Below are positions 7,379-55,708 of a DNA stretch of 64,000 nt, one piece after another; positions within the stretch are counted from its first letter, which is position 1, and the number at the start of each line of letters is the position of its first letter. The stretch spans positions 174,411 to 238,410 of the forward strand of contig JAPOWQ010000006.1 of NCBI GenBank assembly GCA_026707585.1. Reading direction: 5' to 3'. Made by a program: the position numbers and the translations under genes. The DNA is from Chloroflexota bacterium (GTDB taxonomy: Bacteria > Chloroflexota > UBA11872). The notes below the pieces were generated by a model. That model was not told the DNA's origin. It searched no databases and was given only the letters and a program-made list of their open reading frames with translations.

Positions 7379-8533
7379 ATGAAAATCGCCGACATCCAGT
7401 TTCACGCCTTCAACCCGGGCTTTCGCAACGTGCAGACCGTGCGGATCGAGTCCGATAACGGCTACTACGGCTGGGGCGAGGCCGGCCTGAGCACCCGCGA
7501 CCTGGCGGTGGGCGGCGCGGTGTCCCACTTTCGGGACTTCCTGATCGGCCAGGACCCGCGCCAGATCGGGCGTATCTGGCAGGAGGTCTATCGCAGCCAG
7601 TACTTCGAGGGTGGGCGGGTGCTGACCTCGGCGATGTCGGCCATCGACATCGCCCTACACGACTTGGTGGCCAAGAGTCTCGGCGTGCCGGTCTACCAGC
7701 TGCTGGGCGGCAAGCAGCGCGACTTCGTGCCCTGTTTCGTGACCACGCGCTCCAGCGACCTGGACGAGCTGATCGCGGAAGTCAAGGGCCTGGTGGCGGA
7801 CGGCTGGGAGTGCATCCGCACCTCAATGTACGGTCCCGGGATCAGCGACGGGAGTAACCGCTTCGAGCCGCGCGAGTCCGTGGCCGTGACCGCGGAATGG
7901 CATACGGCGCTGCGCGAGGCCGTGGGACCGGGCCCGGTGCTGGGCCCCGACTACCACCACCGGCTGAGCGTGGCCGAGGCGGCCTCCTACTGCCAGCGCA
8001 TGCCGCCGGGCACGATCGACTTCCTGGAAGAACCGATCCGCGACGAGAGCCCCAACGCCTACGCCACCCTGCGCACGATGACCGACGTGCCCTTCGCGAT
8101 CGGCGAGGAGTTCTCCAGCAAGTGGCAGTTCGCGCCCTATATCGAGCAGGGCCTGACCAACTTCGCTCGCGTTGACATCTGCAACGTGGGCGGTTTCACG
8201 GAGGCCATGAAGGTGGCGGGCTGGTGCGAGGTCCATTACATCGACCTGATGCCGCACAACCCGCTGGGTCCGGTCTGCACGGCGGCCAGCGTGCACATGG
8301 GCGCGGCCGTGCCGAACTGGGCCTGGCTTGAAGATCGCGGCCCGGACCTGGGACGGCTCTATTCCGATGAGCTCTTCCCGGTCCAGCACAAGCTGGACGG
8401 CGTCTGGTACCCCGTGCCCGACACGCCCGGCCTGGGCGTGGACATCGACCTGGACGTCGTCAAGGAACTCCCGGTCAGCCACTGGGAGGCCCCGCACCTC
8501 ACCCGGCCCGACGGGTCGGTTACGAATTGGTAA
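7379..8533 (+). CDS. Enolase-superfamily dehydratase (ManD/GalD-like), copy 2 (tandem paralogue)
   Basis: Nearly identical to copy 1 at protein and DNA level, including ~55 bp of upstream leader. Confidence 0.8.
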   Translation: MKIADIQFHAFNPGFRNVQTVRIESDNGYYGWGEAGLSTRDLAVGGAVSHFRDFLIGQDPRQIGRIWQEVYRSQYFEGGRVLTSAMSAIDIALHDLVAKSLGVPVYQLLGGKQRDFVPCFVTTRSSDLDELIAEVKGLVADGWECIRTSMYGPGISDGSNRFEPRESVAVTAEWHTALREAVGPGPVLGPDYHHRLSVAEAASYCQRMPPGTIDFLEEPIRDESPNAYATLRTMTDVPFAIGEEFSSKWQFAPYIEQGLTNFARVDICNVGGFTEAMKVAGWCEVHYIDLMPHNPLGPVCTAASVHMGAAVPNWAWLEDRGPDLGRLYSDELFPVQHKLDGVWYPVPDTPGLGVDIDLDVVKELPVSHWEAPHLTRPDGSVTNW

Positions 8534-51477: not shown

Positions 51478-51697
51478 CTGACCGCAGCCTGGCCATTTGA
51501 ACGAGACGGCATTCCGCATTGTCGAGGCCGCGGCGGCCTAGGGCATGAAGTATCCGTGCCAGGACTGACCCGAGCCGTTTTTCCCGAACGGACGCCCATC
51601 TACGTTGCCCACTATCTGTTGCCGGGGGCTTCCCCAATCCTTGAGCTTGTCCCGAAACTCACGGACGTCGAGAGGAACACGCTCACCCCTCAGCCGC

Positions 51698-53047
51698 TTA
51701 CTCGAGCATTCCTCTACTTGCCCACTCCAGAATCTCATCGGACGTTGCCCTCTCGCGGGCAACCTCCTTGTCCATCCCGGGAAAGGGCGAGGTTGGCCGC
51801 AGATCCTCGTCTTTGGGAAGGGGCGAATCCTGGGCACCCTGTAGAGCGCGCAAGAGCGCGACGAGCCGGACGAAGGCGTTGTGAACGGCATTGTGGAGTC
51901 CTGCCAGATACACAACATCAATCCTGGGCAGTTCCGCAGTGGGAAACTGCCCGTTAGAGAGAGGGGCTAGAGCCGAGATCACACGTGTTGGCCCCTCTTC
52001 CAAATCGCTGGCATTCGACTGCATCTTCTGGAGGGCACGCTGGGCGTGGTCTACTGCACGCTGCAGATCAGTCGCCACGGTGGTGCGCGACTTCGCATCG
52101 TAGCGACGAAAAACCCCGATTCGGGACGCCTCATCCAGGCGAGGGAAATCGACTGCACCGTACGCACGCGCCACCATTGAGAACGACGCAATTCGATTTG
52201 CCACGCCGCTATCGGCCAGAGTTACTGAGCCCATCTGATCAGCGTCTAGATTGACCAGTGGTCCAAATAGATCATCTGCGACTCTGTGGCGGATATCTGG
52301 AAATCTAATCTCCTGGTTCAACAGCGCTTCTGGAATCGGACCACCCACCGTTTCCTCGATGCGCTTGCGTTTTCCGGGCACCGTGTCGACGCCTTCCTGA
52401 AGTCTCAGAGTGCGCACTCCGACGAACTTCTGAAGGATCTCTGCGAGTTCTTCCCGGATTAGGTCTCGCTGTCGGGCTTCCCTGACGGTTCCAGTTATCC
52501 CGAGTGCGCTATCGATCTCGGTCGCAATATCAGCGAATTCCTTGAAGCAGTGTAGCCAATTGTCGGCCGGAGGATCATTCTTTCCCTCGCGAGAGGCATT
52601 CGTCTCGGCAACACGCTCCACCTTGTCGATGAAGGCTCGGGTGTGCCCAAAGTCCTGGTATTTGAGCTCTGGATTGCAGCGCCTGATGTCACCGGCAACC
52701 TCGTCACGAACGAAGAACAGTAGCTTTGGACGTCCAGTTTTCCTACGCGATTGGTAGGCGACGTCGTATTCAGCCTCGGTGATGCTACGCTTCGGTTCTT
52801 CGCTGATGAGAGACCCCCGGCGGATCCCGATGAGCAGAACATAGAGATCGGCCCGGTGAATCGCTTCAAAGCAAGCGTCGTAGGTTCCGGGTCCGAGGAT
52901 CTTTTCGGACCCACTGAATTCGCTCATGAACCGGCGATAGCCCAGAGAGTCGAGCCAGAATCGAAGCGCCGAGCGGAGGTCTCGAAAGTCCTCTACCGTC
53001 GAACTCACAAAGACGAGGGGGGCTGACGAGTCGCCAGTGCTTGCCAT
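51698..53047 (-). CDS. Hypothetical protein with a DUF4062-like N-terminal domain (TIR/SLOG-like fold, as often fused to STAND NTPases/effectors) plus ~340 aa of unknown sequence
   Basis: N-terminus 'PLVFVSSTVEDFRDLRSALRFWLDSLGYRRFMSEF' fits the DUF4062 pattern (FISST..DL..ER...). The rest has no recognisable motif. GC is roughly 55% by eye against a ~70% background. Confidence 0.55.
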   Translation of the reverse strand: MASTGDSSAPLVFVSSTVEDFRDLRSALRFWLDSLGYRRFMSEFSGSEKILGPGTYDACFEAIHRADLYVLLIGIRRGSLISEEPKRSITEAEYDVAYQSRRKTGRPKLLFFVRDEVAGDIRRCNPELKYQDFGHTRAFIDKVERVAETNASREGKNDPPADNWLHCFKEFADIATEIDSALGITGTVREARQRDLIREELAEILQKFVGVRTLRLQEGVDTVPGKRKRIEETVGGPIPEALLNQEIRFPDIRHRVADDLFGPLVNLDADQMGSVTLADSGVANRIASFSMVARAYGAVDFPRLDEASRIGVFRRYDAKSRTTVATDLQRAVDHAQRALQKMQSNASDLEEGPTRVISALAPLSNGQFPTAELPRIDVVYLAGLHNAVHNAFVRLVALLRALQGAQDSPLPKDEDLRPTSPFPGMDKEVARERATSDEILEWASRGMLE

Positions 53048-53328
53048 CGCATCTCACCAGGCCGCGTGCAGGTGTCACAGGCTACCGATCGGACGCCCAA
53101 GCATTTCAAACCAACCAGCCGTCCGTATGTCCTTTGTGAGAGTTTCGGTTCGGCCAGTCCAGCACCCGTTGAACGTAGGGCCCATCCGCTCTCCGCTTGC
53201 CCACCGCGACTTGGATGCCCGTGACAGAGTTCGTGAACTCTTGCTCGCTTCCGCAATGTCGCGCTCAGCGTCATTGGCATCGACGCGAGGTGGCTTGGGG
53301 TACTCTGCGGTGACTTCGGTTTCCTAGC

Positions 53329-53583
53329 GTGGCTGCCGTGAGTAAGTACCAACCACTGCGCCGGTTCCTGGCAGACCGCCGCGAGGGTAAGTGGCGGGCA
53401 ACATTCGCCGACGTCGAGGATGTCCTTGGACTCACGCTGTGCACTTCGGCCCGTAAGCATCGGGCATGGTGGGCGAACAGCACCAGCCATCCTGAGGCAC
53501 GTTCCGGCTGGCTGGCAGCAGGGTGGGAGACCAGGAATGTCGACATGGGCAGGGAACGCCTCGTGTTCCTGCGGCAGCGATGA
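53329..53583 (+). CDS. Small hypothetical protein (84 aa) with 'KHRAWWAN...HPEARSGWLAAGWE' motif, translationally coupled (ATGA) to the downstream methyltransferase
   Basis: Its stop TGA overlaps the MTase ATG (cgATGAcc at 53580-53583). The motif resembles small proteins often encoded next to DNA methyltransferases, from memory only. Lower GC. Confidence 0.5.
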   Translation: MAAVSKYQPLRRFLADRREGKWRATFADVEDVLGLTLCTSARKHRAWWANSTSHPEARSGWLAAGWETRNVDMGRERLVFLRQR

Positions 53584-55028
53584 CCGCCGAGGGCCAGCCC
53601 AACTTCGCCAACAAGACGCTTTGGACGGCGGACAACCTCAACATTCTTCGGGGCATAAACTCGGCCTGCGTGGATCTGATCTACCTCGACCCGCCGTTCA
53701 ATTCCAACCGCACCTACGAGGCGCCGGTGGGATCACAGGCAGCCGGCGCGGCCTTCAAAGACGCCTGGACCCTCTCGGACCTAGACGTGGCTTGGATGGG
53801 CCTGATCGCCGACGAGCAACCGGGCATGTACGCGGTGATCGAGGCCGCGGGCCGAGCCCACGGGAAGGGCATGCAGTCCTATCTCTGCATGATTGCGGTG
53901 CGCTTGCTTGAAATGCACCGCGTTCTTAAAGAGACCGGAAGCGTCTATCTCCATTGCGACCCGACTGCCGGACACTATTTGAAATCTATCATGGATGCGA
54001 TTTTCGATCCTGACTCGTTCAGGAGCGAGATTATCTGGAAGCGTTCCAGTGCGCATAGCGACGCGCGACAAGGTCGGAGATAACACGGACGAATACACGA
54101 CATTCTTCTCTTTTACACCAAATCAGATCGTTGGACATGGAATATGATTCATACACCGTATGATCAAGACTATATCGACCGATTCTATCGTTACATCGAG
54201 CCTGGGACGGGGAGACGATATCGCCTTGGCGACCTGACTGGTCCAGGTGGAGCGTCAAAAGGCAATCCGCAATACGAAGTTATGGGCGTAACTCGGTATT
54301 GGCGGTACAGCGAAAAGCGAATGGCCGAGCTAATTGCCGAAGGTCGAGTCGTGCAGTCAAAGCCAGGTGCGGTTCCAGCATACAAAAGATATCTCGATGA
54401 AATGCCAGGTGTGCCTTTGCAGGACATTTGGACCGATATCCGGCCTATTGGTTCGCGCGCGAAGGAGCGTGTAGGTTATCCGACCCAAAAGCCCCTCGCT
54501 TTGCTCGATCGAATCATCAAGGCTTCCAGCAACGAAGGCGATCTGGTGCTCGATCCCTTTTGCGGTTGCGCCACGGCGTGCGTGGCCGCTGAGCTTCTCG
54601 AACGCCGATGGGCGGGAATCGACATTTCGCCGAAAGCAGTGCAACTCGTAAACCATCGTCTGCAGGAAGCGCCGCCATTGGGCATCGGTCCAATGTTTCA
54701 TCACGGCTACGTCACCGTTCGCACAGACATTCCACGGCGGACGGACATCGATGCACCTGGACCCTACCGGAAGCGCGTCCACGAGCTGTTTGGGAAACAG
54801 GAAGGCCGCTGCAACGGCTGCCAGGTTGACTTCCCCTTCCGCATGTTTGAGGTCGACCACATCGTTCCGCGGTCACGCGGTGGCACAGACCACCTTGAGA
54901 ACCTGCAATTGCTCTGCTCGCACTGCAACCGCATCAAGGGTGACCGCGAACAGGCCTACCTGGTCAGCCGCCTAGTCGAGCAAGGCACGCTCAAGCGCGA
55001 CGGTCGCCGTCTCAAGCCGTTTGCATGA
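53580..55028 (+). pseudogene. Beta-class N6-adenine/N4-cytosine DNA methyltransferase (DNA methylase N-4/N-6 family; motif IV 'DPPF' precedes motif I 'DPFCGCATAC') fused to a C-terminal HNH endonuclease; reading frame interrupted by a single in-frame TAA at 54081-54083
   Basis: 'VDLIYLDPPFNSNRTYE' is the catalytic motif IV. 'EIIWKRSSAHSDARQGRR*HGRIHDILLFYTKSD' continues in the same frame across the TAA. 'GDLVLDPFCGCATACVAAELLERRWAGIDIS' is the AdoMet motif I. 'CNGCQ...VDHIVPRSRGGTDHLENLQLLCSHCNRIKGD' is an HNH. Tracks 53523..54083 and 54144..55028 share one frame. Confidence 0.7.
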
Positions 55029-55391
55029 AGTTCGTGCACGGGGGCCGACGGACACCAAGAAAGTCCGGCGGCAGCGGTTCATCTCCGCGGGCGAGTAGCG
55101 CCCCTCAGGGAATCAATCCGTCTGGTTCAGCGACCCGCAGCCGCGCTTCAACACCAAGGCGTCGACAATCTGCCCCTAGGTTGCATGGCTCTCGGCGTAG
55201 GCTAGCCTGAGTAACCGCGGCGACGAGCCGGTTCTCTGATACTCAGACCGCAAGCTCTTTGGGCTGAGACACATCCCCCATGAGACGACGGCGGGATGAT
55301 GCTGTCGGCCGATTAGTTTCGAGACGCTGCGCAATGTGAATGCGTGAGGCGCGGGGAGGTTGTCAATCCGCGTCGCTTATGGGAGGCCGTT

Positions 55392-55628: not shown

Positions 55629-55708
55629 CGACCTTTGGTGTTGCGGCGGGGTGGCGGGCTTTTCTAAGCTTTGGGCCAGTCCCGAAAGTCACGGATCGCC
55701 GCTACCGC

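Follow-up and report, generated by a model that had tools for sequence, protein, structure and literature searches.

Proteins that have both restriction (R) and modification (M) activities are classified as Type IIC. HNH Type II restriction enzymes such as KpnI, MnlI, Hpy99I, and PacI have other targeting modules and are not known to be fused to a methyltransferase (MTase). Most Type IIC enzymes consist of an N-terminal PD-(D/E)XK nuclease and a gamma-class MTase, the named exception being BtgZI (PMC4081073), in which an N-terminal alpha-class methylase is followed by a C-terminal PD-(D/Q)XK nuclease (Pingoud et al. 2014, PMC4081073). In MmeI, BpuSI, and Eco57I both activities are located in one chain and share one recognition module (PMC4081073), the order being N-terminal PD-(D/E)XK nuclease, gamma-class (NPPY/F/W) MTase, and C-terminal specificity domain. 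Several mainstream Type IIC/IIG enzymes work without a separate methylase (PMC4081073; PMC2582602).

The gene analyzed here belongs to a Chloroflexota bacterium and lies in a 64,000-nt window, i.e., the whole stretch of DNA under analysis. Like BtgZI, members of its family are single chains with an N-terminal MTase and a C-terminal nuclease. The MTase, however, is beta-class instead of alpha-class, and the nuclease is HNH (Mrr-like in sister proteins) instead of PD-(D/Q)XK; in addition, the window copy is truncated. In comparison with MmeI, BpuSI, and Eco57I, the order is reversed, with a beta-class DPPF MTase preceding an HNH nuclease, and the window protein therefore does not fit the Type IIG / MmeI-Eco57I type. 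As for the single-polypeptide definition of Type IIC, it covers the intact homologues and the conceptual read-through product but not the actual window products (167 aa; at most 294 aa).

Regarding the individual domains, the best matches among solved structures are 9c3u/8urk, CcrM (6pbd), M.MboIIA (1g60), Mod (6k0w), and M.RsrI. M.MboIIA, M.RsrI, CcrM, and Type III Mod are likewise beta-class MTases (Pfam PF01555). They have, however, no fused nuclease, and the similarity to them falls mostly in the motif I region (residues ~280–365). The HNH region matches Pfam HNH and HNH_5, NCBIfam IscB and Cas9d HNH, and a maturase PDB chain. It has the complete CxxC...DH...N...CxxC set in common with the HNH domains of IscB, Cas9, and group II intron maturases, whereas those proteins use other DNA-targeting modules and contain no fused methyltransferase. 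A literature search for MTase-HNH fusions and related terms found no description of them.

Reading frame and domain content

The forward-strand ORFs 53523..54083 and 54144..55028 share one frame, and translation of the sequence gives TAA at 54081–54083 as the sole interruption. Reading through from ATG 53580 to TGA 55026–55028 yields 482 codons, and no other break occurs over 53580–55028, in agreement with the first-pass annotation, which had proposed one gene split by a single in-frame TAA. It had also suggested alignment to intact homologues as a check: intact 482-aa proteins align with the conceptual product from end to end at 91% identity, and for this reason the split pattern is judged not to be due to chance. 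The true start is ATG 53580 and not GTG 53523, since the homologues begin with MTAEGQPNF and the ATG overlaps the upstream TGA as ATGA.

The stop divides the gene into an N-terminal fragment (53580..54083, forward strand) of 167 codons plus the premature TAA, and a remainder (54084..55028, forward strand) that comprises the HGRIHDILLFYTKSD segment, the target-recognition region, motif I, and the HNH domain. All motifs quoted earlier were located: motif IV (DPPF) at 53688–53699 in the first fragment, and both motif I (DPFCGCATAC, 54552–54581) and the HNH domain (CNGC...DH...N...CSHCN, 54810–54947) downstream of the stop. The continuous MTase core is also confirmed, as Pfam N6_N4_Mtase (PF01555) spans the stop as a single match to the read-through product, covering residues 31–357 and profile positions 1–219 of 221 (E-value 3.9e-37, 128.8 bits vs a cut-off of 26.7). 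The same holds for the C-terminal HNH nuclease, matched by Pfam HNH (PF01844) at residues 411–456 with an E-value of 1.8e-14 and 54 bits (cut-off 21.4).

The order of DPPF (residues 37–40), recognition region, and DPFCGCAT (residues 325–332) is the beta-class arrangement, and the protein is accordingly classed as a beta-class N6/N4 DNA methyltransferase. By the general motif rule, (D/N)PP(Y/F) stands for N6-adenine and SPP(Y/F) for N4-cytosine, so DPPF suggests N6-adenine rather than N4-cytosine as the putative target. Both DPPF and DPFCGCAT are invariant in the two family alignments (A1 and A2), and the catalytic motifs of the MTase and HNH domains alike are invariant across the family alignments; the window sequence keeps all family-invariant HNH residues (C411, C414, D426, H427, N441, C446, C449, and N450). 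PADLOC reports generic matches to its MTase_II and MTase_III models and no named defence system for this locus. The AlphaFold2 model of an intact homologue (P0001) has a pLDDT of 53 and a pTM of 0.51 and is too poor for structural conclusions, with an input alignment of 26 sequences that was too shallow, all of them being at least 71% identical. A promoter and terminator scan gave nothing informative.

According to the gene callers, the ORF after the stop begins only at ATG 54144 (294 aa); its exact product, like that of the first fragment, has been recorded from several contigs. The 167-aa stub, called as an exact product on 4 contigs, keeps motif IV and has no recognition region, AdoMet-binding motif I, or nuclease. 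The window copy has no uninterrupted coding sequence for an active methyltransferase, as motifs IV and I lie on opposite sides of the TAA at codon 168. In NCBI, the only feature annotated at this site of the same metagenome-assembled genome (MAG; Chloroflexota; MCY3957028, MCY3957029, and MCY3957034) is a 111-aa HNH piece (MCY3957029.1, adjoining MCY3957028.1). Annotations of this kind call for caution, as what was formerly one gene appears in gene calls as a "methylase" of 167 aa and an "HNH endonuclease" of 294 or 111 aa.

Origin of the premature stop

The premature TAA (54081..54083, forward strand) takes the place of a glutamine codon, Gln168, which is CAA or CAG in relatives. This Gln is near-invariant within RQGRRQHGRIHD in alignments A1 and A2. 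Codon 168 reads CAA in the related loci L085, L087, and L088 and CAG in L001 and L173, so that a single C>T transition accounts for TAA. The protein search produced at least 8000 scored matches, and homologue details come from the 120 matches listed, which are MTase+HNH proteins of 400–509 aa with 71–91% identity. The 90% cluster has 47 members, and the 11 listed at full length (482 aa) are all intact and carry Gln at the site.

In the syntenic locus L173 (metagenome contig LXNI01001014.1), the 482-aa gene is intact and codon 168 reads CAG. Its gene order (sigma-70, DUF4062, DUF7662, MTase-HNH, BNR remnant, 146-aa ORF, CtaG, and COX) is that of the window, and its flanks are 86–88% identical. 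Homologues split at the stop position were found neither among the 120 matches listed nor in the 80 GTDB loci, and the sole 167-aa and 294-aa products found are the window's own sequence. Homologues that are naturally two proteins, which would have spoken against a broken gene, are therefore absent from both sets. Among the explanations offered by the first-pass annotation, these results favor a point-mutation pseudogene: the stop replaces a near-invariant Gln, and orthologues with a sense codon and an intact frame exist, including one in a syntenic sister genome.

Another explanation offered there was a sequencing error, and the window indeed derives from a metagenome-assembled genome. A sequencing or assembly error, with CAA in the real genome, is nevertheless very unlikely. 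Two contigs built independently by different assemblers have the same sequence at the site, namely MEGAHIT contig k141_160046 (ERZ27276919), which shows 100% identity with the window across 20 kb, and the 1.2-kb Logan contig ERR5004219_40302 of run ERR5004219, 100% identical over 53282–54495 with TAA included. The same sequence is present in a 246,864-bp ENA contig and a 255,565-bp NCBI contig, where the annotation is broken as well; the TAA is identical in L002/L091 (ENA MEGAHIT contig) and L092 (Logan contig). Moreover, the lesion is a substitution and not a homopolymer indel, and the adjacent genes are intact. It is this agreement between assemblers and records that makes an assembly error unlikely, although the agreeing contigs may share source libraries and may represent the same or related samples.

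The best explanation, and a likely one, is a recent loss-of-function allele specific to the window lineage. A C>T change converted the conserved CAA of Gln168 into TAA in the gene for one 482-aa MTase-HNH protein, and with termination at codon 168 the methylase and nuclease activities would go together. Such a joint loss should be harmless, because no nuclease would stay active without its protecting methylase. Judging by its sequence, the window gene appears to be an ordinary young point-mutation pseudogene in an uncharacterized family. The stop itself would then be unremarkable, a nonsense mutation of recent date in a defence-type gene that can be dispensed with. If the family does consist of single-chain R-M enzymes, the allele would be a snapshot of how such an enzyme is shed.

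As for other broken copies, recurrent nonsense alleles were considered for L016, L025, and L041 on the basis of stops in tblastn HSPs, but these stops are the natural ends of the genes, past which the alignments had run on. That inactivation has recurred within the clade is unproven, as the broken copies in L089 and L090 sit on low-coverage long-read contigs in which neighboring genes are also fragmented. Two further copies, those of L003 and L004, carry single-base insertions (codons ~48 and ~82) at non-homopolymer sites, and their neighbors are intact.

Age of the lesion and possible residual function

The dN/dS values of the window copy against five relatives range from 0.043 to 0.052, and are about 0.045 on either side of the stop. 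By parsimony, 13 amino-acid changes plus the stop are assigned to the window branch vs 11 amino-acid changes to the L173 branch, and the numbers of nucleotide changes are 68 and 57, respectively. No relaxed selection, in the form of raised dN/dS or excess branch changes, is seen on the window copy. These values imply strong purifying selection until very recently, and hence a recent lesion. The absence of relaxed selection fits a very young lesion, and taken alone it would be no proof of lost function.

Downstream, at 55036..55296 (forward strand), lies the degenerate 3'-end remnant of a BNR_2 (sialidase-like) gene, which in relatives comes directly after MTase-HNH; it was detected by tblastn with the L085 BNR_2 protein, of which residues 340–428 are matched at 46% identity (E-value 7e-15). 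About 340 codons of the 5' end are deleted, and the last ~90 codons that are left contain several in-frame stops, a sign of decay at the locus. L173 has this remnant as well, so the BNR_2 deletion predates the nonsense mutation.

The low dN/dS on both sides of the stop, together with the lack of a second lesion in the window gene beyond it, would also be expected if the gene still worked, either as two fragments or with a low output; a recent mutation, however, equally accounts for the absence of further decay, and continued function is considered unlikely. One form of it would be rare read-through of UAA, giving a little full-length enzyme (attenuation). C is the weakest fourth-base context for termination, and the base following TAA is C. 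The stop also falls within residues 146–173, a stretch that appears unstructured in the model of the homologue, itself a poor one (pLDDT 53). The other form would be a restart at ATG 54144, giving a 294-aa protein with the target-recognition domain (TRD), motif I, and HNH that acts alone or with the 167-aa stub. The Met codon at 54144 is peculiar to the window lineage, with Pro, Leu, or Thr in relatives, so this downstream start is new; it is the single hint that speaks for a restart.

A restart at 54144, however, loses 20 residues, including the family-invariant G170, D174, W187, and N188, and the skipped interval (54084–54143) has no in-frame ATG, GTG, or TTG. Ahead of 54144 there are just GGA triplets, and thus no real Shine-Dalgarno sequence. 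None of the 120 matches listed and none of the 80 genome loci are split at this point, and a fragment that kept the nuclease but no functional methylase would presumably do harm.

Programmed recoding or an altered code, with TAA read as an amino acid, is extremely improbable. It would explain the otherwise perfect reading frame, and nothing more; against it, 12 of the 53 other long ORFs in the window end in TAA at their expected ends, so that TAA is a normal stop codon in this organism. In addition, the stop is conserved in no relative, the site has no slippery sequence, and tRNA-Leu(tag) is the sole tRNA that the window was found to contain. The suggestion of deliberate attenuation made in the first-pass annotation is unsupported, since TAA is an ordinary terminator in the window, no homologue among the 120 listed or the 80 genome loci has a stop or split at this site, and there is no recoding signal.

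Upstream gene and chromosomal setting

The gene directly upstream (53329..53583, forward strand) encodes an 84-aa DUF7662 protein (Pfam PF24698, E-value 3.7e-17). Its TGA and the start codon of MTase-HNH overlap as ATGA at 53580–53583, which suggests that the two genes are translationally coupled. The pairing of DUF7662 with MTase-HNH occurs only in a close clade (L001, L003, L004, L085–L088, and L173), and tblastn found no DUF7662 ORF in the 80 GTDB loci. DUF7662 has no match in PADLOC or NCBIfam, a literature search returned no paper on it, and its homologues occur as small stand-alone proteins, none of them in a fusion that would be informative.

In the Chloroflexota clade the DUF7662/MTase-HNH pair is located in a stable neighborhood (GH42, BNR_2, HicB, and GH116) across genomes with a dS of 0.3–0.9. 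Such a stable context, combined with strong purifying selection, seems less typical of fast-turnover R-M genes. Because of these two features, a long-term housekeeping role in epigenetic methylation would also be possible for the intact gene.

Distribution of the family and exchange of its nuclease

The first-pass annotation had described a methylase and nuclease in a single chain as an unusual architecture. With respect to abundance this does not hold: intact MTase-HNH fusions make up at least 8000 protein clusters, mostly from sponge-symbiont MAGs, and among 79 related loci in GTDB species genomes 58 end in HNH. What stands is the difference from the characterized Type IIC/IIG enzymes. Thus, the architecture is common in metagenomes and absent among characterized Type IIC enzymes, and the moderate interest of the locus lies in the family rather than in the stop.

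Other GTDB loci reveal an alternative C-terminal domain. In 18 of the 79 loci the protein ends in an Mrr-like domain, and in none are both nucleases present. This domain of ~170 aa is Mrr_cat/NA-iREase1 by Pfam (PD-(D/E)xK). The Mrr-type proteins of L040 and L081 have 60–64% identity to the window protein and the same recognition region. Since the same MTase core and TRD come with either HNH or the Mrr-like domain, the nuclease module has been exchanged on a constant methylase.

No conserved partner gene was found across the 80 loci, save an IS1595 transposase in 7 of them. Some MTase-HNH copies ride in IS1595 transposons, and at least 1 transposon-borne copy is flanked by inverted repeats and a target-site duplication. 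Streptomyces phages carry the methylase core without the nuclease (52% identity over residues 14–362), and so do 78 of 80 loci in IMG/VR. Phages may thereby borrow the protective half of an MTase-nuclease enzyme.

The swapped nuclease, the lack of a partner gene, the phage methylase on its own, and the invariant catalytic residues together point to a self-contained R-M enzyme. Intact members would then be single-chain R-M enzymes in the Type IIC sense, in which the methylase and recognition region would locate a site, with two possible outcomes: its methylation, or the cutting of unmodified DNA by the tethered HNH nuclease. The restriction function of the family is here deduced from domain content and should be read as putative. 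Tentatively, and with somewhat less than even confidence, the family may represent an unrecognized single-chain R-M class that joins an N-terminal beta-class methylase to an exchangeable HNH or Mrr-like nuclease and is in part IS1595-borne. If its proteins are active, they could prove to be novel restriction enzymes and could carry R-M functions from one symbiont to another; as one branch is the passenger of an IS1595-family insertion sequence, transposition could then transfer an entire R-M function.

The 80 GTDB loci come overwhelmingly from MAGs of sponge-typical lineages, namely Dehalococcoidia and other Chloroflexota, Poribacteria, Latescibacterota, Poriferihabitaceae, Acidobacteriota, and Alpha- and Gammaproteobacteria. 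The uncharacterized MTase-HNH family is thus, as far as its homologues indicate, very common in sponge-symbiont bacteria of many phyla, and R-M genes in general have been reported to be enriched in sponge symbionts (PMC5649159). From the lineage names of the related loci, the window host is probably a sponge-associated Chloroflexota bacterium as well. In NCBI, members of the family are named simply "DNA methyltransferase".

Lower-GC island around the MTase-HNH gene

The MTase-HNH gene (53580-55028) lies in a stretch of lower GC content at approximately 51.5-55.6 kb, where GC is about 0.55-0.62 compared with 0.67 for the window. This island contains the genes for a DUF4062 protein, DUF7662, and the MTase-HNH protein, as well as the decayed 3' end of a BNR_2 (sialidase-like) gene, and the deepest dip (0.45-0.47 at 54000-54300) falls within the MTase-HNH gene itself. 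According to GC3, the copies of this gene in the window (0.65) and in the syntenic sister locus L173, where it is intact (0.68), are both below the expectation for a 67% GC genome and are exceeded by those of the relatives with a GH42-context neighbourhood (0.74-0.80). The island is flanked on either side by a 40-nt direct repeat (51626-51665 and 55656-55695), whose copies are 78% identical. In L173 the counterpart of window segment 51213-51368 sits on the opposite side of the island, so the island edges may have been duplicated or rearranged.

The DUF4062 gene (51698-53047, minus strand) is divergent from DUF7662 and located upstream of it; it is partly kept in L173 and missing from the loci of other relatives. 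It encodes a protein of 449 aa with an N-terminal DUF4062 domain, outside of which nothing matched. The protein has no PADLOC or NCBIfam match, and its 90% cluster consists of a single member.

The DUF7662 ORF (53329-53583, with its equivalent at 7750-8004 in the close relative L085) is 84 aa long, which is also the commonest length among close homologues (69-87% identity, 81-120 aa). Among more distant homologues, lengths of ~125-140 aa predominate, although some measure 82-93 aa. One homologue is fused to transposase-type HTH domains and the rest are stand-alone; a literature search on DUF7662 found no paper. Its stop codon overlaps the start of the MTase-HNH gene as ATGA, which suggests that the two genes are co-translated.

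Carriage by an IS1595-family element

Among the 80 related loci from GTDB species genomes, 7 have an IS1595-family transposase, identified by the Pfam domains DDE_Tnp_IS1595 and Zn_ribbon_IS1595, directly upstream of the MTase-HNH homologue and on the same strand (L071:2831-5467, L030:2939-5419, L027, L043, L044, L047, and L057). In L071, perfect 58-nt terminal inverted repeats flank the transposase and the MTase-HNH gene together, accompanied by an 8-bp target-site duplication (TATTTTTT). The L071 element is a 2.6-kb insertion sequence with the MTase-HNH gene as passenger. The motifs of this copy deviate, having DPPC for DPPF and DPFCACAT for DPFCGCAT.

Exchange of the nuclease domain

In relatives sharing the methylase core, a Mrr_cat/NA-iREase1 PD-(D/E)xK domain replaces HNH at the C-terminus, and the recognition region is also common to some of them (60-64% identity). 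The HNH type accounts for 58 of 79 GTDB loci versus 18 for the Mrr type (L040, L045, L055 from Actinomadura, L081, L084 from Streptomyces, and 13 others), while no locus has both domains together.

Other broken family members

In the close relatives L003 (5992-6005) and L004 (~5999), the reading frame of the MTase-HNH gene is shifted by single-base insertions, located at codons ~48 and ~82. Neither insertion is in a homopolymer, and the adjoining genes are intact; these frameshifts could represent either independent inactivation or long-read consensus error. Further broken copies, L089 and L090, belong to low-coverage contigs with fragmented adjoining genes. Two more family members, L036 (5128-6671) and L067 (5208-8651), are interrupted by insertions of about 1.5 kb and 3.4 kb that either separate the MTase part from the HNH part or lie inside one of them; the L067 copy also has a frameshift.
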